Part shown: piece after piece, positions 2,851-57,657 of the stretch
Layout: each line of letters starts with the position of its first letter
Numbering within the stretch: the stretch's first letter is position 1
Assembly (NCBI GenBank): GCA_051047955.1
Contig: JBPGPT010000028.1
Coordinates: forward strand, 124,001-188,000
Direction of reading: 5' to 3'
Length of the DNA stretch: 64,000 bases
Origin: Cystobasidiomycetes sp. EMM_F5
Taxonomy: Eukaryota
Made by a program: the position numbers and the translations under genes
The notes under the pieces: model-generated
What the model was told of the DNA's origin: nothing
What the model saw: the letters and a program-made list of their open reading frames with translations, nothing else
The model's database searches: none

Positions 2851-4363
<1,513 letters not shown>

Positions 4364-12530: not shown

Positions 12531-12830
12531 TGCAGACTTGTTGGCGGTCAGTACCTTTGTCAATGTTGTGCTTAATTGTGGCGAACCTATCGGAAAACTC
12601 GAAAGTCAACCTTGAACCACCAGACCTGGCTCGCATTTGCTGACTACTGACGTGCGCTGCAGACTAACACTTTACCGCTGGTTGCTGGAATATTGTTTGT
12701 AGGATTCCTGGTGTTCCCGCACCCGGCTGGCCGCGACTGACACGTGCCTGGACTGACCCACAGCCCAAGACTTGCGACTTTCGACGCACCTTGGCTCTGT
12801 TCACCGCACTTCCATCCAAGATATTGCACA

Positions 12831-18400: not shown

Positions 18401-21400
18401 GCGTAGGCATATCGAGGAGTTCTTGGACGAACATGTTGAGCATCTTGAGGAATTCGTGATATGTCGGCTTGTCATCAATGTACTTTTTGATGCGGTCAAA
18501 CAGCACAAACTCATCAGTCGTCACGAGTGGCTGGGCTTGCCCGCGAGGTCCGTGCGGTCTCGGGAAAGCTGGCAATGTGACTGGCTGCAGGAAGGGCTGT
18601 GGCGCGAGGAGCTGTTGACCGTTAGCAGCCGCAGAGCCAGCGCCTGGCAATGCACCTGACGCGTTGACCGGTATACCGTTGCTATAGCCATTCATGCCCG
18701 GATGCAGAGGTGCGGCGACTAAATCTTCCATTTCGTCGTCCTGTCCGGCATGCCCAAGCTTGCCCTTCTTTGCCTGTTTTATACAGCTTCAGCGCGCTTC
18801 CTTTCATGAGCTGCATAGACCTTTGCAACCTACCCTAGCTTTATCTTGAGCACTTGCAACACTCTGTCCTGTATTCTGACGTTTCTTGCTCCTTCCAGAC
18901 GGGGGCTGCCATTCTTCATCAGCGTACTTTTCCTGAAACTGATGCTGAGAGGACGACGGCTGTTGATTGTAATAGCCTTGCTGAGTCATTCCCTGCGTCG
19001 TTGAATGCTGGTTGTGACCTTGTTCTCTATCCGTGTATGCAGAACTTCCAGGAATGCCACTCGTTCGTCGTGACGCTGCTGCTGCCGCAGCTGCCGCTTC
19101 TTTCTCTCTCACAGCTTGTCGTGCGTGAGCGGCATAAGCAGCAGCACGCTCTTCCTCATCCGATAATTCCTCTGGGAAATCAGTAGGTTGCATCCACGCA
19201 CCGCGGTAAGGCTGGATATGGTTCGCCGGTAGTCGCCCGTCTCTCTGTTTCACTTGACGGGCTGTAGATGCTCCGGCTGGTCTGTGTGGGGCAGCTCGTG
19301 AGTACGGCTGCGACTGCTCAACCCGACTTGCAGCAGGGTGGTGAGCAGAGGAAGCGGGCCCATGTTGATGATGCGCTTGTGCATGCTGCCCCTGAAGAGC
19401 ACTGTGCTGGGCCTGTGTAGTTCCGCTTGGGCCTACCATCGGACCCACGCCAAAAAGCGAGGTAGTTGACCCAATGCGGGCGTTCCTGTTCGCGGGCTGT
19501 GATGCCATGGTTTGAGTTGTCGCATGTGGGGCAGTATGAGGGGTTGCCACCGAAGCCTGTGTCGGACCTTGACCTACGCTTCCTGCAGCGGCCGTACCAT
19601 CTGGCGCGCCCGATTCTTGTGAATTGCTGTTATCCGGCAAAAACTCTTTAAACTCTTCCAACAAGTCCGGGGCGTCCTGAAAGAGGATTGTAACCTGGGC
19701 ATAGACATCCTGAATCGCTCGCTGCTCCTTTTGGTACGTCTGTAGAATCTCAAGAAAGGCCTTGTACGTATCTGGACGTCGATTGAAGCGATGCTTGATC
19801 TTGTTTACGAAATTGATGGCGTGGTTGAATTCGGCGGGTTGGCGTTGGGCGATGTTGGAGGCGTTACTGGGTGCGCCAGTTCCTGCAGTGTTGGACCCAG
19901 CAGTACCGGTTGGCGTACCTGTTGCACTTCCAGCTGTACCCGTGACAGGCGCGGCAGACGCCGAACGGACTGCCGTTCCGGTTGAGACATGGGAAGGAAT
20001 GGCATTGTTGGAGCCTGGTCTACTGCCCGCACCGGGGTGTGAGGATGCAGTCGCGTCCGCTCTTGTCGTAGTAGCTTGGTTGAGTGCGCCAGAGGATGCA
20101 CTGGTACTTGCTGCAGCTGTCGTGCCGGGCGCTGGCCGTCTAGCTGCATTCAAAGAAGATTGTGTGGTCGTACTCTGTGCAGCAGAAGGGACACTTCCAG
20201 CTTGAGTTCTCGCGTTCCCAACGACCGGATGTGAAGGAATGGCAGCAGAGACGTTGACTCCACCTCCCAGCGGTGTCGGCGTGCCCCTCTGTGCACTACT
20301 CGCATTTCCACCAGGATTTGCATTCGCAGCCGCAGCCGAAGCAGCCGCTACAGACTGCTGCCACCAGTTTGAGCTGCCGCCTAGGTGAGGTCCGTTCGTG
20401 GCTGGGGCAGGCGGCATGTGCGCATTCACACTCCGTAAATCTCGACGAGTTACCCCTGTCGGAGTCGTTACTGTAATCAGACCTGCTTCTGCGGGATCCA
20501 TGGAACAGTCTATCCGGAATCCTGGAGGGAGGAAGGTATTGAAGCCTGTGGGAGAGCATGAGGGTAGATGGGACAGAGCAGAGCATCGAGGGAGGGTAAA
20601 TGAGAAGAACGAGGAGAGCGTCATCGGAATTAACGATGTGGGAGAGCATGAGGGTAAATGGGGAATGTGGAGAACGTCGTGCGAGAGATCAAGGGTAGAT
20701 GTAAAGAAGAGCAGAGCATCGAGGGAGGGTGAATGAGAAGAGCGAGGGGAGCGTCATCGGAGATAACAAGCATAACGAGAAGACAAAACCAAGATGTCAC
20801 ATTCGCGTTTGCATTATACATGGGCAATGTATCGCATACCGGATCCGGTGGCGGCGGTAAGCGAGTTGAATGGAATGATATCAAAGAGAGGGAGTATTGC
20901 CATCAGCATGCATCTCTACACCGCGTGCTGCCGTCAATAGTCTCCACACCCACCCTGGATGAGCGTCGGATGGCCTTGAAAGAGGGTGGATACCCGGTCA
21001 ATGACGCCTGGCGTGTCGATGCTGCAAGCACGAGCGGTACATTGTCAGAGTAATCAGCACGTCGTCAGTCGGCAGTACGCCGTGTCGTGGTATTCAGCTG
21101 CCCACTTTTGCGTCTTGAAGTCCTTCCTGTATGCATCAAGGACACCCCGATCCAAATGCAAATGCAATATACCATCAGCCTCGCTACACTCTCCACCTCC
21201 AATCCACATCCCCACCCACATTATATCCAAGAACCTGTTGTATATGCCCGGGTTTCGTGTAAACTGATTCTTGACCTGGTCGAGGTAGCTGAGGGCTGCA
21301 TGAAACAATATGGATATGCCGTGAGCTGATTGTAATTGTAATTACAATAGTCTGCCTCTCTTTGTTAAATACCCACCATCCTTGACGTTCAATGGCCTGT

Positions 21401-38160: not shown

Positions 38161-41100
38161 TCACTTGATACCGTGCGGATACTTGCGGATCTCCTCCGCA
38201 CAGAGCCTGAGCCAGAGCGATTCTGCAACAACGCTCGGATCCGCACTCAGCTTCATCTCCGCACACTGTTGCTGACTCCATGCGAGTATATCATCCTGCC
38301 CCGCTCGGGTGCCCTTGAAGAGGATAATGCCCACTTCCATGAGGATGTAGAGCACAATATCGAAATTACCGCCCTTGTATTCCAAGCACTTCGATGCTGG
38401 GCTTCTCGAAAACCCAAAACCCTTACGAATAGCTTGGAAGGCTGTTCGCTGGAATTCACGCATGTCAGCCATCAATGTCGAGTCGTGGCGCCGTCTAGCC
38501 CACCTCGGTAGCGTGTTCAGTAGAGAACAGCAAGGGGCTGCAAATAAAGAAGAGAGGTGTAAACAGCTGTTATAACATCACTCAGACCTCCTGCAAGTCA
38601 AAGACATGTCGGTGCGCAATATGACGCACCTTCTCGCCGCTGATAACGGACTTGCCATCAAGGTTCATCCTATCTTGTACCAAGTAGTACAATCTCCACA
38701 TTATGCCCTTAGCTTTATCCTCCACTACTTCAGCATACGTAATACCATTGTGCTTGACAGACAGCTTTACAGGGCGCGTGATGAAATCGACCTTTGGGTC
38801 CTTTAGCGCAATCATCTTCTTGAGAACCGGATCGCGTTCGCCAAAGGCCAAGCCTCCTTGATAGTGGAATGGATAGCCCTTGCCATGGCCGTTGTCTGCA
38901 AGGCAAGCCGCTGTATAGACGCGCAAACCATGTCGAGTGATGTCCGTCTCGTCAGCCTGTCTCTGGTGCTGAAGAAGCAGCGTGTCAACGGCTGCAACGT
39001 CGCATTCTAGTGTCATGACAGGAGTGATTTCGCGGTAGCCTTCCTGGTTGATCAACAGCATGAAAGAACCAACCTTGGGCAAGTCTTGCGGGGCGAAGAC
39101 GAAAGACGCATTGCTCAACAAACGTTGATGTCGGCCGCTTTTGGACGGTACGATGGAGCCAACTTTGGTGGCAAAACCTTTCAGAGGAGTCAATACCATA
39201 TTGGCGGCAGATGTAGCAGTGCCTGGTCTTTGGTTACGAGATGCACCATCGGCTCGCTTTTTGCGCGCTGCGGACTCAACAGCAGGCAGTCGAGGCAATG
39301 GCTTGCTTGATCCGAAGTCATATCGAGTCTTGCCGACACTCTTAGGCAGGGCAGACGGCTGTAAGCCAATTGCACTGCAGGACTTTCGTCTCGTCACGAC
39401 CGCTGCCGGAATCACTGTGTCATCGGGGTTGAGCACCGCTGCTATGCGACGTTGCTGATCATCTCCTAGAAAGGTGCGATTACCGTCCAAGCGCGACATG
39501 GCAGTATGCGGCCTGCCAAACTCGTCTGGACGTCTACGACCAGCTCTTCCGCGGCTTGGGCTGTCGTACACTTCATCGCTCGCATCAATCAAGTCTTGCA
39601 AGCCAGGCTGAATGAGCGAAGCCCCAGCAAGCCATTTGCCGGGCGGGCATGGTGCCGTAGAAGGTCTGCTCAGATGGCGCTGGGAAATTTTCTCCTTGAT
39701 GCGACGTAGAGCTTGACCGTCGCTAGTCTCCGTAATAGATACAGTGGTTGCAATACTGGCAACACGTCCAGCACGAACCGACGCCGTCTTTTCAGACATG
39801 GACATGGATGTATCGTCAAACGCTCCTGGCATTCGCATTTTGTTTAGATTTGTGCCAGCAATAGGAGAAGCTGGATTAGATACGTCTGCAGTACTCTCTA
39901 CCGTGGTCGCATTGCTGGTAGTTGCAGACAAGGGGAGACTAGTTAGTTGCGACGAGGATGGGTTACGGCTCTCTGCTGAGAGACAGTCTGAAGATTCGAC
40001 GCGCAGATCCAATTTGGCTGGTAGAAATCTAGGGGCATCAACAGTCTCTGCACGTCGTCGTTCAGTCAGAGAAGTCGGCGAATGCGATGCCGCGGAGAAG
40101 TATTCGGCCGAGATGAAGGATCGTGAAGAACTGCCCTCAGCGCCCTGTACCACCTCGTTAGCCGTAAGCTGCGTTGATGTCACTGTTGGCGGCAAGGCTT
40201 GTCCGGCTAACGGGAGCATCTTTAGCGTGGCTGCAAAAGATTCATAAAAGTCTCGCTCACCGCTTTCTGACATTTCGACCGGCTTGGCCTGATGAGGCCC
40301 CTGCTTCCACCACGAACGACAACCGTCGAGAAAGGTCTCGAAGGGATTGTTCTGCGCGCTTTCGCCATGGCGGTCATTCATGTACGTATACTCTTCAGCA
40401 GGATATACAGGGTTCATCTCCGTCGCCATTGCGGCTTCAGCAGACTTTGCGCGTGCGTGTGCCAGTCTTAGCAGCTTCTCTGCTGGTCCTTCCTCTCGTG
40501 TTACAGGCGGCGAAACCGAAGCTGGCTCGGGCGACCATCCCTCAGAAGCGGTTCTAGGAAGGCCATTTGAAGACCCGTCCGTGTTATTGGATGCAGTCGA
40601 GTCTTGCGTCTTTTTAGCGATGACACTGGGACGTGCCCAGACCGTTATCTCGCCGCTCGCAACGCCCTGAGGGATGACTGGACTGTCAGCCTCCACTACC
40701 GGAGATGCAGGGTACTGCCGTGGCGAGTCTGCAATAAGACGGTCGGCAATTGCTGGAGCATACGCTTTAGTATCGAGGATAGACTCTTCGACCGAGTAAT
40801 CATTATTATCGGGCTTCTCTTCCACATCGTCCTTCCTGATGTTAAAGCCGATTTGAGTAATCTTGGTTCTGGGCGGAGTCGACGTCTTGAGGCCCCTCAT
40901 TGACGGCTGGTCTATATGCTGCTTGTGAGAACAATGCCGATGCATCGTTGGAATACCAGAGAACGGTCCAAAGATGTCCTCGCTAATGCCTTCAGACGGA
41001 GAGTCATTGTCTGTGCTCATTTTGCTCGACGCAACAGACCCCTTTCCCTTAAACGTATGACGAGTCTTCTCCTGTTCCGCCTCCTTTGCCCGCATGGCTT

Positions 41101-42169
41101 GCTCCCAGTCCCATTTTACCGACTGAGCAGCTTGTTGACGCCATACTTCGACATTCTCAGCATTATTGAATCTCGTCTCTGCAACGACTTGACCACCACC
41201 ATCAAACTTGATAGCCCGAGGATTCTGCTTAGAAGACTGCATCTTGTGTCGCAATGCCGTGTGCTCAGCCATCTGATAACGATGGATCGACGAAGGCAGA
41301 GTACTATTGTATTCTGCAAGCTTCGACAGATTCTCCTCCCTGAGCAGCCGCGCCTCGCGCTCAGCAAGATTCTTTGATCTGACTGCGTTGAAATGTGCGC
41401 GTTCGGCTTCGAAGCGCGGTTTCTCTTTCGCATTCTTCTCGTTGATGGCTTGTTAGTAAGCAGGGTCGCGCGGCTTATCTTCTCGACTAGGCGACTCTGA
41501 TTCCGATGGTACATACGCTGCGGTTGGCCGGTCTGTCGTAGATGCGGCACGCTGCGGAGGGGACTTGGGCGGCGTAGGCCGAGTTTGTGTCCGGTCATAA
41601 ATGTAATGACCGCCAAAAATCCAGGGACCAGTACTGACTCTGATGGTGTTGAAAGCGCGACGTACATCATCTGGACCGATCAGAATAGGTTCGTCGGATG
41701 GCAGCTGGTTGTCAGAGGCATTCCGTGGTGCTTGACGGGGTCCTGCCTTTGCAACCGAGCCTTCTGGTGATAGCGCCGGGCTGCGATTGAAGCCAGAGTC
41801 CCTTAGAGCCGCCGAGGATGTATCGGCAGAATCCACGCCGAGACGTAGTCCCTCGTCCTTGTGCGAAAGGGGCGAAGTGATTTCGCTCTTGACGTTTGTG
41901 TTAGAGGATTGAGAGTGTGACAGCTTGGAGGTCTGAGCACCCTTTAGATTAGATGCGACTGCAGGTTGATCCGCCATAGCAGTCTTAGGAGAAGTGGCAG
42001 GCGGAGGTGATGGTGTGACTTCGCGAGCCGGAGGTGAACACCCTCCCTTGACACCTGGTCGGGAGACTGTAGCTCCAACACGCGAGAACACCCCTGGCTG
42101 GACCTGGCGCGAGAACTTGATGGCATCTACGGGCTGTTGTGGTGCCCTGTCTGGACGCTGAGGGTACAT
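38161..42169 (-). CDS. Large hypothetical protein: disordered N-terminus, globular C-terminal domain, internal in-frame TAA at 41453-41455
   Basis: ORFs 41453..42169 and 38582..41452 are in the same frame. The C-terminal domain (LLINQEGYRE...YPFHY...WRLYYLVQDR..GEK|LFTPLFFICSPLL) continues through two introns to a stop at 38161. Confidence 0.55.
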
Positions 42170-43069
42170 GTCGCCAGATGTGAGGAGTCGAGCGCCACAG
42201 CGACTTAGATAGCTCGATTGTGAGCCTATCTGTGGACACGGACATGTCGTCAGTCTACACCAAAGGTAAGCGCATTCAGGCTGTGAGGGTGACCTACTAG
42301 ATGCCGTCAATGACTAGACGGCGTAGTACATTTAGCAGATTAGAGTGGTCGTGACTGTCGTAAGCAGGTACCTCGTGAAACGGTGAGTGATATATAAAGG
42401 GCCTCTCGGAGTGGACCTGCGTAAGCCAGGTCGTAGTCGAGAGACGACGAAACGGATAGAGGTATGGACAGCAACGCCGGCGACACGAGGAAAGAGAGAA
42501 AGAGAGTTGGAAAACGGTCACAGTGGTGGATGAGTGGGAAACTACGACTCGCTCGAATATTTGACTATGACTGAATTTCTAGCTGTGAGGGGTTTCAAGG
42601 TGCGAGGGGCTATTACTAGACCCCTGGGCAGGGAGGAGCCTGAGAAGAGCAGGATGGATGCCTCACTTGCGCAAGACTGAACCAACACCAGCGCGAGTGC
42701 GAGGATTGTTGATTTATATCCGCGATAATGTCGAATCAAACATGTCACGACGGAACTGCGGCTGAATGAATGCGCTTTCCTGCACTGTCAGCCGGGCAGA
42801 TCAGTCAGTCGCGAGTAACAGAACATTCAATCAGTCTTTGTGTATCTGCTACGTCAATCTCGCTTTGTCGATATCGCTCCACCTCGTCTGCAAGCTGAAT
42901 GCAGCGACTGGGCATTCTGCGAGCTTGGACGATATTGACTCCGACACGCAGCCTCTTCGCGAGATACGCTGGCCATCTTTTACGCTGTCACAGGCATTCA
43001 CTATCGTCGTATCGTTTCCTTTCACGATATTCTGCTGGATCTTTGACTGAGCCTACGACAAGACTGAGC

Positions 43070-44831
43070 ATGGCGGCAGCTGATATTTCCACAGCCATGC
43101 CGACACTGCAGAATGGCATGACTCTGTATCCTTCGTCGACGTCGATGAATGGAAATGGCCATCTCTGCCAAAATGGACAAGTTGCGACCGAAGGTTCAAG
43201 TCGTGCTTCCCCAGTGCCAGCAGAAGAGGCACTTGCATCAACGAGCAGCAGTGCAGACACCGTCTCGCAGAATGGCAGTCATGGCAGCGTCCAGTCCGAC
43301 GCAGTCGATACGCTCAAAGCTCCATCAGCAAAGAGAATCAAATTGGCACACAAACTGAATTATCGAAAGGGCCTCTTTCTCGCGCCGATGGTGAGCATTG
43401 TCGTGCTGTTGTTTGTAACGAGTGGTCTCATGACTTGGGCGTCTATGATTCGCCTCGACAGGTTCGCTGCGGCACTCTGCCTACACGGCTCTTGTCGCTC
43501 AATTACGGAGCAAGCCTAGTATGGGGTGGGCATGTCAACATCTTCACATTTGAGTAATCAGATGTCTGACATGATTCGCCCGCTCATCGCAGGCCCGGAA
43601 ATCGTAGACAAGGCTATAATGGATTGCGAGCGTAAAGTCGATGGTGGGCATACAATAATATACTCGGGCGCTCTCAATCCTTACACGACATATCCCCGCC
43701 AGAGCCCTCCTCTACCATCTCATTCGTACACCCGAAAACTGGCAAATCAGTGTTTGAATGTCACCCTATCGAAAAGTCTCGCTTGATTTTCCAAGTCGGG
43801 TCTGCGGATCCCATGCTGGCTGTTCGTGCTGCCAAGGTAGTCGAAAAGGACGTCAGCGGTGTTGATCTAAACTGCGGGTGTCCAAAGGTATGTCTTTGTG
43901 AGGCAAATGTGCGTACAAGGCATGAGCTGACGTAGGGGTAAAACAGGACTTTTCCATCAAAGGAGGCATGGGAGCTGCACTACTATCCGATCCTGAAAAA
44001 CTATGTTCAATCCTCCGTGCTCTCGTGTCGGAACTCTCCGTCCCCGTTTCCGCAAAGATTCGCCTACTTGCTGAATCTGCTCCTACTCTATCGCTCGTTC
44101 GACAGGTCTGTCAGACGGGGATAAGTTGTCTTACTGTGCACTGTAGGACGCAGACTATGCGGCCTAGAGAACCTGCGCTGCTGGATAGACTGAGAGAGGT
44201 AGTGGACGAGGCGACAAGGTATGGCGTGCCTGTCGTTGCGAACGGTGATTGCTGGGGAGAGGGAGACAGGGACAAGATTTGCGAGCTGACGGGTGCGTCG
44301 TAGCATACCTGGTGCGTGGGAGTGTGACGGTTGCTGAGGGTTGAAATAACAGGCGTGACATCCATCATGATTGCTCGCGGCGCCGAAGCGAATCCATCAT
44401 GTTTTTCAGCACTCACACGCCATCCTCCCGGACTGCTCGATCCAGCGAGTGTAGTGATTCCCCTCTACACTCGCCTGGCCATGACGACGCACAACCACAT
44501 GCAGAATACGAAATTCTGCATCAATGCGATGGATCTGGCTGCTAGTAACCTTGCTCCGTATCCTGGCATCAAGGACAAGCGGAAACAGATGAAGGTTGCG
44601 ATGAGTCAGCTCAAGTCGTACGAGGGGCTGTGTGAGTTGGTGGGTGTCGATTATACCGAGGCGAGCAGAGTATTGACGGTGGAGGAGGTGCTGCCTGGGT
44701 TGAAGGAGAGGCTGGACAAGGAGGACAGGGAGGTGGAAGTCGATACGAGGGAGGATATTGCGGAGAATGGGGAGGATGGGCATGATGACGCGGAGAGACG
44801 GAGGAAGCGCCCTGCGGCACTCGCAAGCTGA
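43070..44831 (+). CDS. DUS2: tRNA-dihydrouridine synthase 2
   Basis: FLAPMV|RCGTLPTRLLSL, WGPEIVDK, LIFQVGSADP, GVDLNCGCPK, GGMGAALL, TVHCRT, VVANGD and MIARGAEANPSCF. Confidence 0.92.
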
Positions 44832-45159
44832 CCTCGACGGTGTGTATAAGAGTAATCTCTCTTTGTTGCCATATTATTGCAACTCTTCCCTGTTCTCCGG
44901 CTATTGTTTGCCACTTTCCGCATCCGTCGTTGCCGTCAAGTTGCAATTCCTCCTCTTCTTCAGACGACGACGAGGAGGAGGAGTAGCATTTCAAAAGGAC
45001 AGCGAGCACATCAGACACTCGCATCCTGGACGGGGACACCACTAACATCCAGCACATCGCATAGCCGCGTCACCCGTCAAGCCAGGATATCGATATCGAT
45101 ACAAGATAGACATATTACTCCATCACCCCGCTACTGGCTGGACACTCTCGCACTCCGCC

Positions 45160-48100
45160 ATGGCCAGTACAGCTTCCGACACCCAGCCCACCTACATCTT
45201 CCGGCTGTCGCGGTACTCGGATGACGGGGCACGGCTGTCGAAGCGAAAGGTGGGTGTGGTGTATATGCAGGGTATAGCGTTGACAGTGCTGATGCGATAT
45301 CGCAACAGTACGGCTTCACCGCAAAGACTGCCTCGTACAAGGACCTCAACTCGGTCGTGTTTGATGTGAGATGGTGACTGCGCAGTCGGGTCGTGCAGAG
45401 GCTGACGGTGGTTTACTGACACTCGTATCCTGACTAACATTGTCTCCTGCTCACAATACGCACCTTAATCTCATTATATCCCACGCCCTCCGCTTATCGT
45501 CCTCCGTGTGGCGATGCTCTCCGTCAAACTATCAACGGACGTCATTGGATGCCTGTCGATATACAGGGCATCATTACCCGCGCAGAGAACACATTCACCC
45601 TCGAAAAGGGGACTTACAACCTCATCCTCGTAAAGCCGTCTGACTCGAGTACCGCATCGAGCACGGAGATTGGCTTATCCAAATTGCCATCTCTAGACGA
45701 GGCGGAACAGTTTCTGTGCCATGCTTTCGACTCGTACAGTGACTTCAAACTACACCGCAAGAGTATTGCAAAGCTGCTGCCTGATGAAAAGGGTAGGAGA
45801 GTGGTCAACTTGTCCATCGTGACGCGGAAAGTGAAGCAGATGTTGGACGAGAGGGCAGTAAATGGTCGCGGTGTAGACGTCCCAAAAGAAGCGGACAGTA
45901 GTGTAGAGACGCAAGCTGCGGCTGGAGAAGGAATCCCACTCTGCATCGTCAAGGGCTATCCAGCTATCTCTGCGACCGAGGACCCCTCAGTCTCGCAGCT
46001 CCATCCAACTGAGCCGCTTCACTCTGTCGTCAACGACAATCTCGCAGAAATGCGAATGGAGGCGGAGCGAACACGAGATGAAACTGCTCGTATTGCAAAA
46101 CTGGTCTCGCAACACGTCGAGTCAGCCCCTTCGACCAACGTCAAGGGTGATGACGACAGCGTCAAAGGCAAAGACGTTCCTTTGCAGTCCCAAGAGAAGG
46201 ACAAGGCGGGTGTACATGATGCCATTACTAAATTCGCAAAGGAGTACATCGACATTAGCGGACTCATTCACGGTGTAAACTCGCAAGCACACGCCGCTTT
46301 TACAAGCAAGACCAATGCGCTCGTCGAGTCTCTTTCAAATGATGTCGAGACGGTAGTCGATGCTGTCAAGACGTTAGCCAACGTCCCGGCCGAAGTCACA
46401 AAGCCAGTGTTCGAGTCACTTGGTGAAGCGCTCCATGACGCTTCTCAGCGTGTCGAAGCTGCTCGAACAAATGCCTGTGCGCCCTTTAAGGCTCGATCAA
46501 CTGGATGTACGCCATTCAAGCCGTCTGGCCCAACTCTGGCGGCTCCACAGCCCTCTGCTGCTCCTTCGCCTAAAGCAAATGAGAAGAGCGACGATGACCT
46601 TGCGAATGCCATGTCTGCTGCTGCAGACAAGTTCGAGTATCGCGACACTACATCACGCGGTCTTGCAACTCCACATCGATTCTCTGCTGGTCCCTCACAG
46701 AAGGGCGCAAGTTTCTTCAATGGTCGTCCTGCCGACTCAAAGTCGCCAAGGGACACATCGCAGTACGGCCATGCTTTCGACTCGTATGCGAAGCGGTACT
46801 CGCCATTTGCATTGCTCGGGCCTGGGTCGCAAATGTTGCACGAGCGGCCTGTTGAGCCTCCCACTTTCCCATGTGAAGCGGAACCGCCTTGCTCTGGCCT
46901 TTTCGCAACAAAGGCTGAGCTCGTTAAACACATGATTTTCCATCCCAAGATTGAGCAAGATGCGGCCAGTGGCGAAAGGCCTCAGCAAGCCCCAGCAGCT
47001 TGCACGAATGCTTCTCGCAGCGTGTTCAGCCCACCGACGAAGGCCGACAAGGCTGGTTTGCAAGAAAGTTCTACCTGCGAGGCTGCGCAAGCGATACAAG
47101 ATCGAATGACCTTCCGATTCGGCCAGCCACGCAGGGAGTTGGAGCAGACGTCACGCGAAGAGTTGCGAGAGGCGATTGCTGCATGGCGAGACCACTATCG
47201 CTCGCGTGAAAGTCTGCGTACGTCTCATCGCAAACCGCCCCCACCACCACCTCGTCATGCTTCGCATGGTGAAAGGCCGGGACATGCACTTTGCTCGCAC
47301 TTTAGTGGAGCAACGCACGCGCTGCCTCCGTTTGGAGGCACAGCACTCCCTCCAGCACCTCGACCGATGTTTACGTTTGATACAGCAAAGTCTGATTGGA
47401 CCCCCAAGGCCGGTCCATGGAGTGCACCCGAAGCTGCCGCTGCTTTCCCACCCGTTAAGTTTGTGGCCAGTGCCGGCGCAATAACAAACAACAAGCATGT
47501 CGCGCTCAAGCAATCGCTGGATCGCTTTGTCGCTGACTTTAACGCTACATTGGGTGACATGTTTGGTGCACCCGCTGATGCTGGTGTGGAAGCGGCGAGC
47601 GAGAAGCAGGACTCGCGAGTCAGCGCACATCTTGGTGCTTCGCCTGTCTATGAAGGCGCTGCGCAGAAGGAAGGCTCGTCGACCACTGCTCCAGTAAAAG
47701 TAAAGGATGCAGGAGCGAGCGCTACACAGAAGGCTGAGAAGCACAAGCATCGCGCGACTTGTGATATGTGTAACGAGTGGATTGTTGGCATCCGTCACAA
47801 GTGTGTAGAATGCCCTGATTGGGATTGCTGCGAGAGCTGCTACACTCAAGTTCGGGACGCGCACCCGCAACACACATTTGCAAAGATCCACACGACTTCT
47901 GATCTCGGCAGCGTCATCAAGATGGATGTCAAGCACTACGGTATCTATTGTGATGGATGCAACAAGCCCATTACCGGTATCCGGTACAAGTGCACCCACA
48001 CCGCATGCTCCGACTTTGATCTCTGCGCGCAATGTGAGGCAGATCCAGTATCGTATGCTGTATCGCGCAAGATTGGAAATCATGAATTCAACTCGCATAT

Positions 48101-49452
48101 CATGCTTAAGATCCGCCAGCCCGTTGGTCGCTTTACTGGACGCTTCAGACAGGGAGCTGGCAATGGCCTCGTACAGGCTATTGGAAATGCACAGGCGTTC
48201 TTGGCACAGTACAGTGCTTCATGCGGCAAGAATAGCGTGTCGACATCAACACCGGACTCGCCACAGACTGTGGATGCTCAGACGCAGACTAGCATCAAGC
48301 AGGAGAAGCCATCTAAGCGAGAAGAGAAGGAGGAGGACGCTGGAAACATCGCGATCGCCGATGAAGCTCAAATCAATCCTGCATCTGAGAAAGACAAGTT
48401 TTCCAAAGTGTCGAGCCCCAAGAACAACACCCTGAATGACTTTTTCCGAGAATTGTTCAAGCCAGTATCTACCGCCGTTAAGGAGGTACAAGCTGAAAGC
48501 GTCATTGCTGTCTCCAACGAGCCAGATATCGTCTCGAACGAGCCAACCATTGCATCGGACGCAAAGTCAAACGAGGCAGCGGCCATAACTGACGAGATCA
48601 AGGTCGCTGCTATTGCGGAACCAGAGACGAATTCTGCAAATTCAGCACCGGCTGACAGCGATGTTGCAAAATTGGCAGAGTACGACGCCACCTGGATAGC
48701 AGTGAGTGCATAGACCTCTGATAAGCGAGCTCGAGCTGACTTGCGATGTACGCTTCTCCTAGGACGTCACATATGTAGACGGTGTCTCTGTCGCACCTGG
48801 AACAGTCTTCAACAAGATCTGGCGCGTCAAGAGCTCGGGTCGAACGGCGTGGCCTGCTGGAACTCGACTCCTCTGTGTTGGCGGGTTTGGCGCGCCGACT
48901 CATTCCGGCTCAGCTGCCGAAAGAGCCACTGTCTCGTATGAGGTTCAGTCTGCACGAGCAGGTGAAGAAGTCGATGTCATTGCACATGACATTACCGCTC
49001 CGGAAGTCGCTGGTCGCTTCCTGAGCTACTACCGCTTCGTCACTGCGGACGGCACTCGCTTTGGCGATCGCCTCTGGATTGACATTGAGGTAGTACAGAA
49101 CGATGGGGAACGTGCTATGGCCGCTAGCCGCGAGTCGTCGGAGCATTCCTCGTTGAACAGCTCGTCGGTGATTACCCCGTCTGTTCGAGTCAAGGGTGCT
49201 ACTCCGCAAGCAGACTCGCCATTGGCCGCAGCAGCCATGCTCCAATCTCGTACGCAGAGTACGGAGCCGACGACTGTATCGGCCGTCACATCGCCACGTT
49301 CGGTTCTTAGCGAACTCGTAGATGCCGAGTATGTCAGCTCTGCACACTCTGCCGTCGAAGGACCCGACGATGAGGACGATGACTTTGTCTTACTCTCCGA
49401 TGAGGACGATGACGACTTTGCTGATATTGCGAGCGTCTCGAGCTCGACGTAG
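45160..49452 (+). CDS. NBR1: NBR1-like autophagy receptor (ZZ-ZZ-FW domains, C-terminal AIM/LIR)
   Basis: Two ZZ fingers (HRATCDMC..IRHKCVECPDWDCC; HYGIYCDGC..IRYKCTH..DFDLCAQC), an FW domain (DVTYVDG..FNKIWRV..AWP..SYYRF..GTRFGDRLWIDI) and an acidic tail with DDDFVLL and DDDFADI. Confidence 0.85.
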
Positions 49453-49506
49453 GCATACCGAGCAATTGCGGGGATTCTGACTGGTCGGCTTAGCCGATCG
49501 TTTTCG

Positions 49507-49525
49507 ACACATACACACACACACA
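49507..49525. repeat. (CA)n microsatellite in the NBR1 3' region
   Basis: acacatacacacacacaca. Confidence 0.8.
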
Positions 49526-49914
49526 GGGTGTTCTTCTTTGTTCAGACAAGACTTACTAGCGCTCAATATACAAGAAGAACGAAAAGACTGCCAAGCCATT
49601 GCAAGATATTTTTTGATGACGACGATAACTTCATGCTAAATCTACAAAAAACAATGATACCTTTTCCTTGAGTGCCCGCTGTAGCCAGACACAGACTAGC
49701 TGTCTCGTTGTAGAATAATACTGATACTTCTCCTTTGGTTGCTGCTTGTGACTATGAATTGCCGGCTTACACGTTGACTTTCAACCAACGCCATGCGACG
49801 ATATCGATACCCGACCACGATGCCCTGAGACAAGGCCACACTACCTCGACGTCCAAGTCGATTAAAGAGCAGCCGCTGGGTCGATTAGCCAGTCCAATAT
49901 CGTCCATTGTCAAT

Positions 49915-52900
49915 ATGGACCTCTGGCAGCCAGCGGACGCGGGAGACTCGCCGTACTCGATGAGCAGCCCGGGGAATAATGCTACAGCGACGGGGACATC
50001 CTCGTCGTCGTCTTCAGCAGCAGCACCGTCCACGGCAGTCGCAGCCCGAGCGAGCGGGAGAAGACACGCAAAGTTCTTTGGAGGATATGGGACGGAGGAG
50101 TCGAGCAACGACGACGACGAGGACGAGGAAGAAGATAACGAGATGCTGTCCCGGTTTGGGATAGCGCAGGGAGGGGAGCGCGAGTCCTCGACAGCGCTCG
50201 GGCTGGACCTGTGGTCAATTGACGAGGTGAAGCCCAGTATTGGCGCACGCAGTGCACTGCCAGGCTCAGACGACGAGGACGAGATTCAAAAGACGATAGA
50301 CCAAGTGCGGCGGTCAATGATGGACTCGTCGGCGACGTCGCAGCACTTTGCTGCCAACGACGACGGAATGGACTTGGAAGACTTTCTCGGGTCTGTGATT
50401 GACAAGCTACGACGTGACGCTGGTCGTGCGGCTGACTTGCAAAGTGTGCTCAGCGCAAACACCCGCCTGCAAGACTCGTCGCTGCCTTCAAACGCCGACG
50501 CTCTCGACACCCAGTCCCTCTTTGGCAGCAACGCCAGATCTCTGCCATCGAGCTCACGGTCACTGCTGACTGACCCACTGACTCGAGATCTGAATCTCGC
50601 TGCACCGCTAAACGATATTCTGTCGCATCGTCCCGGTCCTGGAACTGCGGGAGCCCCAGTTTCGATCGCCCCGCACCAGACGTTCCCTGCGGCAAACATG
50701 TTTACATCGAGCAGCGGAGCTGCGCGCAATGCACCTTCATACTCTCAACCACTGTCACCGTCGGCAGTCATGTCTATTCTGTCTGGGAGTACGCCAGCTG
50801 GACTTGCCGCAGCTGGTCCATTCAATCATACCCACTTGGCTGCCTCCGCCTACCCTGCCGAGTTTCCGCAAATCAAACGAGAACAGCAGGCATTGCATTC
50901 TGCGTCTTTTCTGCAGCCTCACGCATCAACGAGCTCGTCGTCTAGATCATCCTCCCAGTCGGGTCCCTCACTCCCTAACAGCACACAACCTGGCTTAGCG
51001 ACACTCCCTGCTCTGTCCCCGCAGCCCAACGTCGGCTCATTTCCGCCTAGCGCGTATCAGACTCAGTCGAATTATACCTCGCCAGAGAGCGATGCTGACG
51101 GGCCGAACACCGCTTCATTCCAACAACATAGTCGCAGCACGTCTGGCTCGAATTATGACCTTACGGCACCTTCTGGCAAGGCATCCAGTAGTACGAGTAC
51201 GACTCGTGCTCATACTGCAAAGAATTCGCCTCCAGGCAGTGTCAAACACTCGAGATCGACTTCGTCGCTTGAAGGCATGAATCGAATGGTGCCATTGTCC
51301 AGCATGACAGCATACGATCACAGCCGCAGCTCTGACAATATTTCGGCGATAGCATCGCAGGGGCAGCAAGTTCCGCCTCAGGCTGGCCCTTCCGCAGCCC
51401 CCGATAAGCACACGCAACAGGCGTCATGCGAAAGTAGCAGTCTAGTGCGAGCTGTCTATCGCGAACCTGCCGCATCTCCTGAAGCACAAATGGTACTACA
51501 GGAAGGCCAATGCCAGCTCGTCGTGCTCGGGTTGCCCGACGAGGGAGCCAGGTCTCGCGTAGAAACCCAAGTCAAGATTGGCTTGACCCTCCTCCGATCC
51601 CGATTCATTCCAAGTGCTCATCCGGCGGCATCTGCCCCGGCTGCGCACGCACCCCGAGCAATGAGCTTTCGTGATCCTCGTGGTGCACTCACAGCAGAAG
51701 CTGATGCCCACTTTGAAAAGGTCGGTAGCTGGAGGTATCTGTGCTTACCAACTGTATCGAGTGTCAAACGGAACGCGAAAAAGCACCATCGCGCTGACAT
51801 ACCGTCCGAACAAGTTTTATATGCCGATATCAAGGTCGTCTCTGCATCGCATCCGAGCAAGCAGATTTCTGTATGCACAAATTGCCAGCAGAGGGAGTTT
51901 AAGCGATTGCAGCGCAAAACGCAGAACAGAAATAAACCAGCAGACGAGGTGGAAGAGGCGGGGAGGGAAGACGAGATTGGCATGTCAGATGAGGAGCTCG
52001 CGAAACGTAAAATTGTACTCTTCAATTGCGGACAGTACCTCGACTTTAACAATGGCGAAGCTATCATACCAACCCGAATTACCTGTTACTGCAGGCATCA
52101 CAAGGAGAAGTACGGTTTCAAGTGAGGTTCGATTTTCCCCTCATTTTGAGTCCCGTGACTGACGGATTGACCGGAATCGCAGCATCGTGTATACCTTGCG
52201 GGACCATCGGGACCGCTTCGTTGCGACAGCAATGTCCCCTCCCATCTTCCTTACCGACGATCATAAGGCACGACCCACCGTTCCCGATGACATTGGTATG
52301 CAACACATGTCACCATCGCTGGTCAATATCGCCAACGGTCACAATGTTGCCCGAGATTCTCGTGCGAGCAGCGCGTGGACGTCGGCAGCTTCCAGTGCCG
52401 GCAATTCTCAGGCGGGCTCGGAGGTCTCGTCAGCTGCCTCTTCTCGACGTCCTTCACGTGGCAACAGTGTTGAAGCCTTGAACCAAGAGGACACCAAACC
52501 CTCGAATCCCACTAATGCCCTCACTGCATCTGCTCTTCAGCCGCCGCCGACAGCCCGGTCTGCAACAAGGAAGGAACGATCTAGCAAGCCTTATAATCTA
52601 GACTCGCGGCCTCTCAAAGGGAAGCGGGTCCCATCGATGAATAGGCTTAACAGCTTTACAATGACACCACTAAATCTGTCGGCGCCAGGGTCGCCAAGGC
52701 AGGGGGCGCAATCTCCACCCGCTCCAGCATCAGTAGGACTGACAACAGACTACCTATCGCTTACGACCGAACCGCTAGAAGACTACGCCAAGTCGATCAG
52801 CGGCGGCACAACTCTGGCAACTATCCAGGATTATGCCAGTCCCAACTCTTCAGTGTCTGCGCCATCTACGCCTGGTGCTGGCCTCGATGTATATACTTCT

Positions 52901-54975
52901 TCATGGATTGGCGGAATGACAGCGCCAGATGCACAAACGTCCACCGACGAGTCTTCCATAGGGAGTCGGTCAGTTGAACAGAGTCCGGCGTACGCACAAT
53001 TCGCAGCTCTGCCAAATCGCCCTTTCGCTTCGTCGCAGACGCTGCAGATGCCGCCGCAAAGCGTATCACACACGCAATCTCTCGCACAACAGATGGCACA
53101 GCTCGGCATGGATGGGCTGAGTATGCAGTCTTCTACCTTTGCTCCGGCGTTGCCAAGAATGAGCCGCATAATACCCAGCGAAGGTCCGATGCACGGCGGT
53201 ATTGAGGTCACCATTCTCGGCGAGAATTTTGTACCCGGACTCGAAGTTACATTTGGCGAGATGACGGCAGTGAGCACGCAAGCATGGGGCGCTAACACGC
53301 TTGTCTGTGTCTTACCACCGTCACCATGCTCTGGTCCAGTCATGGTGGACATCAAAGGCTCTTACATACCTGCAGGCGCAATCCAGATGCAGCTGTTCAC
53401 CTATGTAGATTCCGGTGACAAACGCCTAATGGAACTCGCCTTACAAGTAGTGGGTACGTTAACATCGTTGCCATCCCCTTTTCTACTTGGCTGACGGCAC
53501 CGGTCCATCAGGCATGAAGATGACCGGACGCATAGACGATGCCCGAGATGTCGCACAGCGGATTATCGGTTCTAGTCCGCAGCACCTAGCTCAGGCCCCG
53601 ACGAGCATGTCGACTCAGCCTAAGCAGATGTCGACTTCTACAACAGGCGTCAATGGAGCGCGGAGCAAGCCTACTAAGGCGTGCGACATGCAAGGGATTG
53701 TGCTGGAGCTACTTGCTATTGCAGAAGTTGACAGAGTCTGCATGGAGAAGCTGAACACTCCATCGTCAAAAGACGGTCAAACAATGGTAAGAAGCGCGCT
53801 CGACCTCCGCTTATTTGGCTAACGATTCATTGCTACAGCTGCACATCGCAAGCCAGTGTGGACTTCATCGTCTGATGAATTGGCTAGTAGACCATCACGT
53901 CGATCTTGATACACAGGATGCCAACGGCAATACAGCATTACACTTGTCTGCGCTTTCCGGTCGCTATACGTCTACTCGATTGCTCGCTAGTGCAGGAGCC
54001 AAGAGCCTGTCTAACAAGTCTGGACTGACGCCTTTAGACGTGGCTATCCTTCACGAGCAAGCAGATATAGTCAGTCTCTTGCACGGATACGCAGAGAAGG
54101 TGGATCTGCCAGAACCGGATGTGATCGCTCCCTCGAAAGCTGCACATTCACGTCGATCACAGTCGCGTTGGCTGCAATGCAACAGTGTCCGCCGGCAGAG
54201 ACATGCAAGAGCATCCGTTGATGACGACACTTCAATGTACGACTCTGAAGACTCCGACCACAGTACACTGAGCTCGGACGACTTGCCGTCAACATCACCC
54301 GACAGTTCGACGTACTCACTTAGTAGAACACATAGCTTCGTGCTATCGTTGCAGGGCGAGAACATAGACGATCTCGAAAGCACGGATGACGGAGATTCGG
54401 TAGCATCACTCGAACAAGAATCCCGATGTTTCGCTGCAAGCGGCCAAAGCCACAAGGACCTTGGCGCCGTCTCTTGGCCACAGAGTTTTGTCAATTTGAC
54501 TAAAGCAACACTCCCGCCGCCGCCAACAAGGTCCCTCTGGTCTGCGAGATGTCTATCAGACTGGTTTCTACATGTGCCTGCGCCAGGAAACGATGAATCG
54601 TCATCATCTTTGCTGCAGAAATTGCGAACACGGAGATTCACTAATCTGACCAGCAGCTCTAACTATGCTAGAGTACAATCCCGTTTCGGTGCGTTTGCTT
54701 GACGGTACAGACCGGATTTTGCTAACGCGAATCGCCAAACAGTCAGAAGCTGGGGTTACTCTTTGGACAATCTAAAAGAGGATGCATTGCGCTCCTATAG
54801 CTACAATGCTCTAAAATCGAGCCGGTTGCGGGAAGATCGAATGCTCTGGATTTTTTGGCTACCTCTGCTACTCCTGGCCGTAATATGGCTTGTAAATCAG
54901 ACTGGCTTCCTCCCGACTTCACTGTTTAGCACGCCTGCAGTACTGCCTTCTCTGCCTTATCTTCGCATTATGTAG
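49915..54975 (+). CDS. SPT23/MGA2-like membrane-tethered transcription factor (IPT/TIG, ankyrin, C-terminal TM)
   Basis: SRVETQVK, RITCYCRHHKEK, SPPIFLTDDHK, RIIPSEGPMHGGIEVTILG, ankyrin repeats (QDANGNTALHL) and DRMLWIFWLPLL. Confidence 0.9.
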
Positions 54976-55124
54976 CGCGTTGATTGTTATATATGCCTGT
55001 AGCGATACACGCATACAAATATGTTGTTGACATTATGCGACGAACCTGAGGAGCTTGGAAACAAAGGAACGTATACGAATGGACTTCCGTCGGTGAGTGA
55101 GCAACTGGTAGCATCCACTCCGTT

Positions 55125-57657
55125 TTACCATTCAGGCATAAATATTGGTAGAGGATGAGCCTAGTTTTGTCAGGGCTTCGGTCAGCTTCTGTCCCCTTAC
55201 AGCAATCCCATGCTGACCTCTGTATTAAAGACGTATCGGTCTAACGGCCAGATGCTGTTGTCCGAAAACAGCAGATATAGATACTTGAGGGTCTCACTCT
55301 GTTAATAAAAGGAACGTCAGTCTTTTGGTCGCCTCACGGCAAATCTTATCTAACCAGGAAGAAGGTCTCCATGCGGTCCTCAAGGCCAGCTTTGGCGGAA
55401 TCAACATCCTTGAGTGTTGCGTAGCCACCAGTCGCAACTTTGCAATGTTTCTCGATGGCTTGGAAGATCCGCCAGCCCCAATCGCTGTTGGTGTAATATG
55501 AGCGCACGAGCACGAGCTATTATGCGATTTCCGTACCGATAGATCGGATCACCCGTCAGTCGCCATGACACAAATATACTTTCGACTGTTTCTGGACGAA
55601 GCATGTACTTGGCATCATGAGGAGGTGGACCACCTTTCGCACGCTTAATAAACCAGGCGCGGCCCGTTCGATCGCCTATCCGTTTTGGAGTGATGTGCTC
55701 GTTAAAATAATGCACAATCTCTGCTCCCAGTCCCGTGTTTGATTGAGTGTAGGTGTCCATACACGTCTTCGTCAAGGCCTGCCCAGCCGTCCAATAAATC
55801 TTCTGCTCCATCGTGATCTCGTCTTCTCTGACTACGGCAGCCGGACGCCCGTTGGTCGTCCCAAGCATCATGAGTCCACCTATGAAGCAGACGAGATGAT
55901 CCTGCTTCGGTATCTGCCGCACACCGCTGCAGCGCAAATGTCAATTAAAGTGTCAGATGTCCGTGTTGTCACATTGTGGAATACTTACACTTTCTTTGTC
56001 AATGGGTCCATTGCGGGGACAAGCTCCTGTGTGTAGACAGTCTTTCCAACATTCGACTTACGCAACAGGTTGCGCTGAATGCCGCCGAGCGCTTCCATGA
56101 ACATTACCGCATATCGCTTTTGCGTCTGACCAGTCTGCAGGTATTGCTTCAACAGATACTCTGGATAGGAATAGTCAGATCTGGCAAAAGGGCAGGTCAT
56201 AATTGTGGTATACCGTAATACGAGTCCGCTCGCGACCCAAGCCGAATGTCAGAAATCTAACGAGACGCTGCATGAGCGCCACTGTGACGGGTCTAAAATA
56301 GATGACTTACTTCGAACAGGCCGTTAGAGGGACTTTGTGCATGTCAGTCGGTCATTTGCTCAGCCCTGGTGAAACCAAGTGCTTACTTGATAAATAGCGG
56401 GACTAGACCGTCTTGTTTATCCGCGCTTTCCATCACATCCATAATACGCTCGACCTTGTCCCAATACTCGCGCTCTCCTGTCAGATGCGCCAGGTATTTG
56501 AATTCTAGCTGTAAGGTTCCGGCCTCCGCGACCGAGGAGAAATTGTAATTCTGTGAGTACACAACAAAAGTCAGCAGGGTATACAGTGCACATGATGATT
56601 TCAGCGGTACGAACATCAGCATCAGCCAGCCCTTTTCGCTGGTGTAGATTGATGAATGACAAAGGTACGCCAGTCGGCTACAGAAGTAGAGTCATAAGTC
56701 TGCAGAGTATGGTCTTCGCGTGATGCGAACAGCATGTGCTCACTGTGTCAAATATCGGCAGCAGCCTATCAGCGAGATCTACCGCCTTATTCAGATATAA
56801 CTTGTCTCCATCGCTGAGATGATATGCGGCCAGAAGTCCGCCCAATACTCTGATTGTTACCTAGAGAGGGCACATGATCTCAGTGCGGACCTACAGACGG
56901 TGGGCTACGCAGGTCATACTTCGAAAGCGTGATGTTTGTCATCCGTATCGAAATCCAGCTCGTCTGCAACCCATTTCCGAGCTCGTGCATACTCTTCCGG
57001 CATGTCAAAGAGCAAGAGACTGTCCAGGCAGTCCACAATGTAGCTGCAACCGGGGCCAACGGGTTCACATCAGCGCGACCGTATCTCGGTGGAGACGAGG
57101 CAAACGCACTATCCTATTGGTTTGCTAGCAAGATTGCTGCCCTTCTGACTTATAGGATGATAGTTATCATAGCCAAAGGCGTCGCGGCCGTAAGCTTGCC
57201 ATGATGTCTAAAGCACCCAGCGCGTCACAGGGGTACCAAATTTCGTCAGCCGCAAAGGACGAGGAAGATGAACCAGAAAGGCCAGCGGACGCACTCTGAA
57301 CGCTTCTCGGACAGCGTTGCGCTTGCTCTCCAGCTCTTGTTCCGTATCGTGCGCTGCAGTTATCGGAGTCGCCTGATCAGCCGCAGCAACATCGGGCAGG
57401 ATTGTCGACGATGGCTTGACCGCATCCTGACTGTCCAGCGACGATATCGCGACGTGTTCGGCGGTGTTTATGCGAAAGATGGCTGCACCCGCTAGAGCGA
57501 AAACGAAAGCTGCTCCTGCAAGATATATCAGAAGTTTTGGGAATTTGGATGAAGTCTTGTTGGCCTTTGAAGCTGGAGTCGCAGTATCGCTTCCTGGTTT
57601 GGGGACATCGCCGTGATCCGCGAGCGCAGCGGTAGTCTTGCGCAGACGCGGCGGCAT
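55125..57657 (-). CDS. MNS1: Class I alpha-1,2-mannosidase (GH47), type II membrane protein
   Basis: N-terminal [80 protein letters not shown] and NTEAHPLP. Confidence 0.93.

Follow-up and report, generated by a model that had tools for sequence, protein, structure and literature searches.

A candidate distant-branch-point intron with an AG exclusion zone in an NBR1-like gene of a cystobasidiomycete fungus

Within a 64,000-nucleotide (nt) stretch of genomic DNA from Cystobasidiomycetes sp. EMM_F5 (assembly GCA_051047955.1, contig JBPGPT010000028.1, positions 124,001 to 188,000 of the forward strand; hereafter the window, with positions counted from its first base), we found that the second intron (intron 2) of a predicted NBR1-like gene carries four perfect branch-site motifs near its donor, after which no AG dinucleotide occurs until the acceptor. 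We propose that intron 2 is probably a distant-branch-point intron with an AG exclusion zone, in which the branch would most likely form 129 to 161 nt from the acceptor; we infer the use of these sites from the layout of the sequence. The branch-to-acceptor distance inferred in this way is most likely approx. 5 to 10 times the local norm. The window (G+C content 52.6%) represents fungal DNA with closely packed genes, and its introns are mostly 52 to 63 nt long.

Branch-site motifs and AG-free tract of intron 2

A preliminary description of this DNA had placed a donor at 45366, an alternative donor (GTCGTG) at 45354, four branch-site motifs, an AG-free run from 45401 to 45564 and a CAG acceptor ending at 45566, and all of these positions proved correct. 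The motifs place candidate branch A residues at 45405, 45419, 45433 and 45437, i.e., at intron positions 40, 54, 68 and 72 and at 161, 147, 133 and 129 nt from the 3' end of intron 2, respectively. Between 45340 and 45600, AG dinucleotides start at 45340, 45369, 45384, 45397, 45399, 45565, 45584 and 45586. The first base of the AG-free run (164 nt) thus coincides with that of the first branch motif, and the first AG located 3' of the motif cluster is that of the CAG acceptor (45564-45566), which is in phase with a long open reading frame (ORF).

To put this run in context, no AG-free run on the + strand is longer, and it ranks third in length among the 8523 runs on both strands of the window. 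AG-free runs with at least 160 nt were seen 3 times, as compared to a mean of 0.03 in 30 first-order Markov simulations, and runs with at least 130 nt were seen 6 times, as compared to a simulated mean of 0.57. Single-site comparisons, in which the P values are somewhat overstated as the locus was singled out for its odd look, pointed in the same direction: (i) four CTRAC motifs in 37 nt form a unique cluster among the 239 CTRAC motifs on both strands of the window (P = 0.0146; 5000 random placements); (ii) when the 164 nt were shuffled 20,000 times with their composition preserved, only a fraction of 0.0003 was AG-free, with 6.2 AG expected; and (iii) intron 2 has 4 AG in the 36 nt located 5' of the first motif as compared to 0 in the 163 nt located 3' of it (P = 0.0009; Fisher's exact test). 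As the tract retains 7 GA, 6 AA and 5 GG dinucleotides but no AG, AG is specifically depleted, rather than purine pairs overall. Overall, the AG-free tract is beyond what chance or composition gives. The pyrimidine share of the tract ranges from 0.55 to 0.85 per 20-nt window between 45406 and 45516, and a long uninterrupted pyrimidine tract is absent from this region.

Predicted RNA structure did not set the intron apart. The fold of the whole intron was not unusual (z = +0.54), and the interval 45439-45566 had a predicted free energy of -21.5 kcal/mol (z = -0.28), with 72 of 200 shuffles folding equally well or better. A search of 45000-45800 against Rfam at E ≤ 10 yielded 3 weak matches (E values of 5.9 to 9.5), none of which was located within intron 2. 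These results bear on the idea that intron 2 owes its length to a small RNA hosted in it, e.g., a box C/D small nucleolar RNA (snoRNA), with the CUGA of the CTGAC motifs serving as D box. Intronic snoRNAs are common in fungi, and CUGA does occur within three CTGAC motifs of the cluster. Nevertheless, neither a significant fold nor an Rfam match was found in intron 2, and a C-box-like UGAUGA was not seen on reading its sequence. We therefore regard a snoRNA host as very improbable.

Support for the intron from homologous proteins

Judged from its splice signals and from the homologues of the encoded protein, intron 2 is very probably a real intron of the U2-type GT-AG class. Its GTGAGA donor shows G at positions +1 and +5, as do all 17 of the 17 donors listed for the window, and an unspliced reading from exon 2 reaches a stop after 3 codons of intron 2. 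Exon 3 matched 2067 proteins at E ≤ 0.001 (phmmer), the best non-self match having an E value of 1.6e-54. The 149 best non-self matches were compared with the locus by tblastn, using the N-terminal 220 residues of each, and several homologue N-termini aligned with exon 1 and with the beginning of exon 3. A conserved N-terminal domain of approx. 110 residues was found to be common to nine of these homologues. The Pfam domains ZZ and N_BRCA1_IG occurred together in 10 of the 10 homologues scanned, all nine homologues with the conserved N-terminal domain among them, and the PB1 domain gave no Pfam match at E ≤ 0.01 in any of the 10. A PDB sequence search with the homologue P0096 did not yield a match to its N-terminus.

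A profile built from the nine homologue N-termini only, with the window sequence excluded, scored 36.8 bits for the three-exon model with the donor at 45366 and 36.2 bits for the same model with the alternative donor at 45354, as compared to 20.1 bits for a protein starting at ATG 45549 and 19.6 bits for a model in which exon 2 is skipped. The spliced model proposed in the preliminary description is therefore the one that the homologues favor over a start at ATG 45549. Exon 1, which shares 42% identity with residues 3-31 of the homologue P0026 (E = 0.014; tblastn, small database), adds to the 17 bits gained by the spliced model, and the Y-G-F-T and V-V-F-D stretches encoded by exon 2 align with conserved columns of the nine homologues. 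At the junction, V-V-F-D from the end of exon 2 is followed by G-I-I-T-R-A from exon 3, which matches the V-F/Y-x-G-L-Y/F-D-R-A of the homologues; the frame of exon 3 starts at 45567 with G-I-I-T-R-A-E, aligned to G-L-Y-D-R-A-S. Because these junction residues line up with the homologues, homology supports the combination of the donor at 45366 with the acceptor at 45566.

Other ways of splicing this region were considered as well. The alternative donor GTCGTG at 45354, which is in frame, lies 15 codons into exon 2 and has a second copy at 45390, was not favored, as it lacks G at +5 and would remove the V-F that is aligned to the conserved V-F/Y-x-G. U12-type introns have the donor consensus ATATCC or GTATCC, from which the donor of intron 2 differs, and this class was rejected. 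Nested (twin-intron) splicing was also rejected, as 45401-45564 offers no AG for an inner intron and the AGs at 45369-45399 are only 3 to 33 nt from the first base of the donor. Among sequencing records, five over 40000-56000 came from one run guessed to be RNA (word share 0.06); two small pieces were located within exon 3, none was near intron 2, and the records showed no joints.

The homologue profile also bears on the possibility that the tract is an internal promoter or leader, or doubles as one, so that transcripts starting inside it would yield a shortened NBR1 from ATG 45549. In favor of such a role, similar AG-free CT-rich tracts are located 5' of two other genes (42541-42419 on the - strand and 49714-49827 on the + strand), a further AG-free tract is present in the 5' region of the NBR1-like gene (44853-44938), and the public protein P0001 (1054 amino acids) begins at ATG 45549, even though it appears to be a plain ORF call. 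The form starting at ATG 45549 would, on the other hand, forfeit approx. 17 bits of the profile score, and exons 1 and 2 are conserved in nine homologues. ATG 45549 is also found in a poor context (T at -3), with an out-of-frame ATG (45514) located 35 nt upstream, and the ends of the tract coincide with the branch motifs and the acceptor, neither of which a promoter would need. We consider a promoter or leader role improbable, but it can be compatible with distant branching in the same tract.

Tracts of this type were also recorded as an observation in their own right. AG-free pyrimidine-rich tracts of 86 to 123 nt precede the ORF at 41453-42313 (- strand), an SPT23/MGA2-like gene and the NBR1-like gene. 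These CT-rich tracts (42419-42541 on the - strand as well as 49714-49827 and 44853-44938 on the + strand) may represent core promoter or leader elements.

Position of the branch site and comparison with other introns

For comparison, 15 introns were assembled by a heuristic joining of ORFs, in which the shortest canonical candidates were taken from 38 hand-picked ORFs, a subjective choice; an unrestricted version of the same finder proposed 2526 candidates for 667 ORF pairs, which was too noisy to use. Among the 14 short comparison introns, AG-free zones had lengths of 10 to 59 nt, and the distance from CTRAY to the intron's 3' end was 13 to 23 nt in 9 introns and 37 nt in 1 intron, while the remaining 4 introns contained no CTRAY. 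The branch A was located at intron positions 35 to 50 in 9 ordinary introns. The 5' half of intron 2 thus looks like a normal short intron as far as its predicted signals are concerned, the oddity being that the next AG is 129 to 161 nt off. Length alone does not bring AG depletion, as a 389-nt candidate intron in the SPT23/MGA2-like gene (53450-53838, + strand) holds 29 internal AGs and has CTAAC 16 nt from its acceptor.

A second case was found in the SIN3 gene, where the preliminary description had pointed to an intron with a matching layout, which we observed as a donor, a CTGAT, a 366-nt AG-free run and a CAG. The A of the single CTGAT is at intron position 51, and the AG-free run leads up to the CAG. 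In this tract 8.3 AG would be expected and 14 GA are present, and 0 of 20,000 shuffles were AG-free; the SIN3 intron contains 4 AG in the 47 nt upstream as compared to 0 in the 359 nt downstream (P = 0.00016). The exon junction reads H-P-T-L-I-Q followed by G-F-N-T-F-L-P-P-G, a stretch which we take to be PAH1-type (the end of PAH1). The SIN3 intron also shows a partial internal duplication (20761-20708 versus 20628-20575, 54 nt with 94% identity; 20662-20637 versus 20572-20547, 26 nt with 96% identity), in which CCCACAT of the upstream copy corresponds to CCCACAG at the true 3' end. This pattern suggests that the SIN3 intron may have been lengthened by duplication and that the extra AG was lost afterwards. 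When the NBR1 and SIN3 introns were compared with each other and with the rest of the window, only chance matches of 11 to 14 nt were found and a shared mobile element was not seen. In the next SIN3 intron upstream (21105-21023, - strand, approx. 83 nt, GTGGGC donor) we observed a cluster of CTGAC, CTGAT and CTGAC with a 74-nt AG-free run; with its three CTRAY motifs, this intron shows that the NBR1 intron is not alone in having clustered branch motifs.

The full layout, i.e., a consensus donor, a CTRAY at the start of the run and a YAG at its end, was found for 2 of the 12 AG-free runs with at least 100 nt, namely those in NBR1 and SIN3, and both of these runs coincide with homology-supported junctions. 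The runs at 4121-4273, 22898-22688, 22280-22135, 62716-62851 and 51996-51871 were rejected, as they lack a consensus donor suitably upstream of the motif at the start of the run. Among the other flagged runs, those at 3374 (+ strand) and 11331 (- strand) are located opposite ORFs that were taken as coding, and the one at 26758 (- strand) comes after a normal short intron. The preliminary description had further proposed a recurring class of introns associated with regulatory genes; the recurrence of the layout in SIN3 stands, whereas the proposed class, like its association with regulatory genes, rests on 2 of 17 introns in one 64-kb window.

These comparisons also allow us to weigh whether a real intron 2 might use a non-consensus branch site near, or at mid-distance from, its acceptor, in which case the four motifs would be unused decoys and the AG-free tract a by-product of pyrimidine richness or of some other constraint. 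The genome does tolerate degenerate branch sites, if the 4 of 14 short comparison introns without CTRAY are a guide. Candidates of the yTnAy form occur in intron 2 at 70 nt (CTTAT), 93 nt (CTCAT) and 113 nt (CTCAC) from the acceptor, and the look-alike SIN3 intron has a CTCAT at 13 nt. On the other hand, the nearest CTRAY is 129 nt from the acceptor of intron 2 and yTnAy of any kind is absent from the last 70 nt, so that even CTTAT would represent 3 to 5 times the normal distance. A proximal branch would, moreover, give no cause to purge AG 100 or more nt upstream while GA, AA and GG are retained (P = 0.0003), and the AG-free run opens precisely at the first motif. Overall, we judge a proximal or mid-distance branch to be rather unlikely.

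Several observations nevertheless weigh against a distant branch point within the cluster. The CTTAT at 70 nt from the acceptor is the same motif that represents the sole yTnAy of a candidate short intron at 9401-9452, and because of it the branch could be located closer than the cluster, yet still far out. The final 30 nt of intron 2 are just 50% pyrimidine and no strong uninterrupted polypyrimidine tract adjoins the motifs, and two other genes have AG-free pyrimidine-rich tracts upstream of them (123 and 114 nt) that are located outside any definable intron. The SIN3 case is less clean, given its CTCAT at 13 nt from the acceptor, and distal branching can be unproductive. With regard to the data sets, the comparison introns are predictions picked, as the shortest candidates, by our own ORF-joining heuristic, and the nine profile homologues were selected for matching the spliced N-terminus, although their mutual conservation is independent of the window.

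If intron 2 is spliced from a distant branch point, its GTGAGA would be paired by U1, and the branch-point binding protein together with U2 would pick one of the four redundant CTRAC motifs, 40 to 72 nt from the donor. As these motifs are located at or just past the spacing of ordinary 52- to 63-nt introns, the first step could be set by the distance from the 5' splice site. A lariat would then be formed and the second step would take the first downstream AG, at 45565-45566; this choice would work only because AGs are kept out of the 164-nt pyrimidine-rich tract, hence the term AG exclusion zone. The long span between branch and acceptor would probably slow exon ligation and raise the need for second-step factors, and slower ligation would give room for intron retention, with translation of a retained intron 2 ending after 3 codons. 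The purged AGs argue that distal branching is probably productive.

Published systems were compared on the basis of excerpts from the papers cited. Mammalian examples of distant branch points include those of alpha-tropomyosin exon 3 and of alpha-actinin. In such introns the second step finds the first AG downstream, and mapped distant branch points are typified by an AG exclusion zone with the branch-site consensus at its 5' end and a normal AG frequency upstream (Gooding et al. 2006, PMC1431707). Intron 2 is similar in that a long AG-free, pyrimidine-rich stretch, above the approx. 100 nt taken as a minimum for this class, lies directly 5' of the exon, with the first AG as acceptor, and in that the branch consensus is located at the zone's 5' end, near the upstream exon, with a normal AG frequency upstream of it. 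It differs in its fungal host, the usual introns of which are 52 to 63 nt long, in having four redundant perfect CTRAC motifs as compared to one degenerate site, and in the absence of a strong contiguous polypyrimidine tract.

Among fungi, long introns of Schizosaccharomyces pombe have distal branch points that bear the consensus and the positions of which depend on intron length (Bitton et al. 2014, PMC4079972), and "early" branching has been described for 63 S. pombe and 104 Cryptococcus neoformans introns, mostly > 150 nt in length (Burke et al., bioRxiv 10.1101/224170). The same authors give 15 to 30 nt as the typical range from branch to 3' splice site and suggest that size is perhaps measured before the first step and that a distance > 50 nt could stand in the way of the second step (bioRxiv 10.1101/224170). 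In C. neoformans, several accessory splicing factors prefer introns with a non-optimal distance between branch and 3' splice site (bioRxiv 10.1101/2021.03.19.436190). Intron 2 resembles the early-branching introns as a fungal intron of > 150 nt in which consensus sites appear to be placed by their distance from the 5' splice site and the distance from branch to 3' splice site would be far above 15 to 30 nt. For the S. pombe and C. neoformans events, lariats or intermediates were observed and are discussed in the excerpts as possibly unproductive or artefactual, whereas intron 2 is known from its sequence only. AG exclusion is not mentioned in the passages on these two species, whereas intron 2 has purged AGs.

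The introns of COF1 and UBC13 in Saccharomycotina depend on a stable stem that forms between branch and acceptor, by which the path is shortened and silent AGs are masked (Gahura et al. 2011, PMC3239191). These introns are likewise fungal, have a distance of > 60 nt from branch to 3' splice site and are spliced nonetheless; unlike them, the interval in intron 2 has neither a predicted stable structure (z = -0.28) nor AGs to hide. The layout of intron 2 matches the mammalian AG-exclusion-zone type and not the Saccharomyces stem type. A search of the open-access literature did not find a printed description of AG exclusion zones in fungi.

Distal branching has been described before for long introns of fungi. 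Intron 2 is a tidy further example and no new kind of element. The excerpts from two of the above papers (PMC4079972; bioRxiv 10.1101/224170) leave open whether distal branches are productive, artefactual or dead ends, and an AG exclusion zone would represent evolutionary evidence that the spliceosome searches from a distal branch to the first AG. The NBR1 and SIN3 introns suggest a cheap test that uses sequence only, i.e., determination of the composition-corrected AG-free length 5' of annotated acceptors, by which distal branching that is productive could be told apart from noise in the genome of any fungus. A bolder proposal, to which we give little credence at present, is that selection in this fungus keeps, as a small class, distant-branch-point introns that are productive and resemble those of mammals, in which the 5' splice site acts as a ruler for the branch and the long pyrimidine-rich spacer serves as a regulatory platform that tunes ligation or retention for chromatin and autophagy regulators (SIN3 and NBR1), e.g., under starvation. 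If this were true, the early branching of S. pombe and C. neoformans would partly represent a mode under selection rather than noise. In practical terms the reach is modest, as one gene is concerned and the mechanism is textbook knowledge in animals; the findings are of moderate interest for research on splicing in fungi and have some value for annotation.

Gene model and neighboring observations

The features described here are listed in Table 1. Intron 1 has its branch A at position 43, which leaves 16 nt to the 3' end, and its AG-free zone is 20 nt long; in intron 3, the branch A is located 23 nt from the 3' end.

Table 1. Predicted features of the NBR1-like gene and the SIN3 intron (positions in the window)
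Feature	Position	Strand	Description
Exon 1	45160..45249	+	30 codons from ATG 45160, the first in-frame ATG of ORF 45046-45369
Intron 1	45250..45308	+	ordinary short intron, 59 nt, GTGGGT...CTGAT...CAG
Exon 2	45309..45365	+	57 nt, 19 codons, phase 0 at both ends
Intron 2	45366..45566	+	201 nt, phase 0, GTGAGA...CAG
Branch-site consensus cluster	45401..45438	+	GCTGAC 45401, ACTGAC 45415, CCTGAC 45429, ACTAAC 45433
Putative AG exclusion zone	45401..45564	+	164 nt, 61% pyrimidine
Exon 3	45567..48701	+	1045 codons, two ZZ zinc fingers
Intron 3	48702..48762	+	ordinary short intron, 61 nt, canonical, GTGAGT...CTGAC...TAG
Exon 4	48763..49452	+	NBR1 Ig-like (FW) domain, acidic C-terminus, stop codon included
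SIN3 intron	20546..20953	-	408 nt, phase 1, GTGGGT donor, CAG acceptor

Pfam searches found ZZ in two stretches of exon 3 (E = 1.6e-14) and N_BRCA1_IG in exon 4 (E = 1e-27), and these two exons are joined by the canonical 61-nt intron 3. Because ZZ in exon 3 is combined with N_BRCA1_IG in exon 4, the predicted four-exon gene is NBR1-like (NBR1 autophagy-receptor family), which bears out the name NBR1 given to it in the preliminary description.

The sole form of this protein in the public protein collection is P0001 (45549-48713, + strand), the ORF call from ATG 45549 introduced above. This model contains neither the conserved N-terminal exons nor the exon that encodes the NBR1 domain. As P0001 is the product of the window's own ORF, it provides no independent evidence, and it was also the sole match in a word-index protein search. 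The locus thereby illustrates a warning for annotation: ORF callers begin at ATG 45549, and gene models that assume short introns may miss introns of 200 to 400 nt. Either the wrong start or a missed long intron would cut off the conserved N-terminal domain.

A search of 1.84 billion protein representatives showed that the closest relative has at most 45% identity over the matched stretches; with no relative above this value, the lineage seems to be poorly sampled. When the first 378 residues encoded by exon 3 were used to scan metagenome contigs, 332 pattern stretches were found, 0 of which were confirmed by tblastn.

Two further observations were made on the + strand. A trio of CTRAC motifs in 29 nt (12640-12668) is located 3' of the stop codon of an importin-9-like gene (approx. 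12529) and 5' of the ORF at 12741-13244; these motifs may belong to one or two introns in the 5' untranslated region of the next gene. The C-terminus of the NBR1-like protein (49300-49452) is strongly acidic, with runs of D and E followed by F-V-L-L and F-A-D-I, two stretches which presumably resemble Atg8-interacting motifs.

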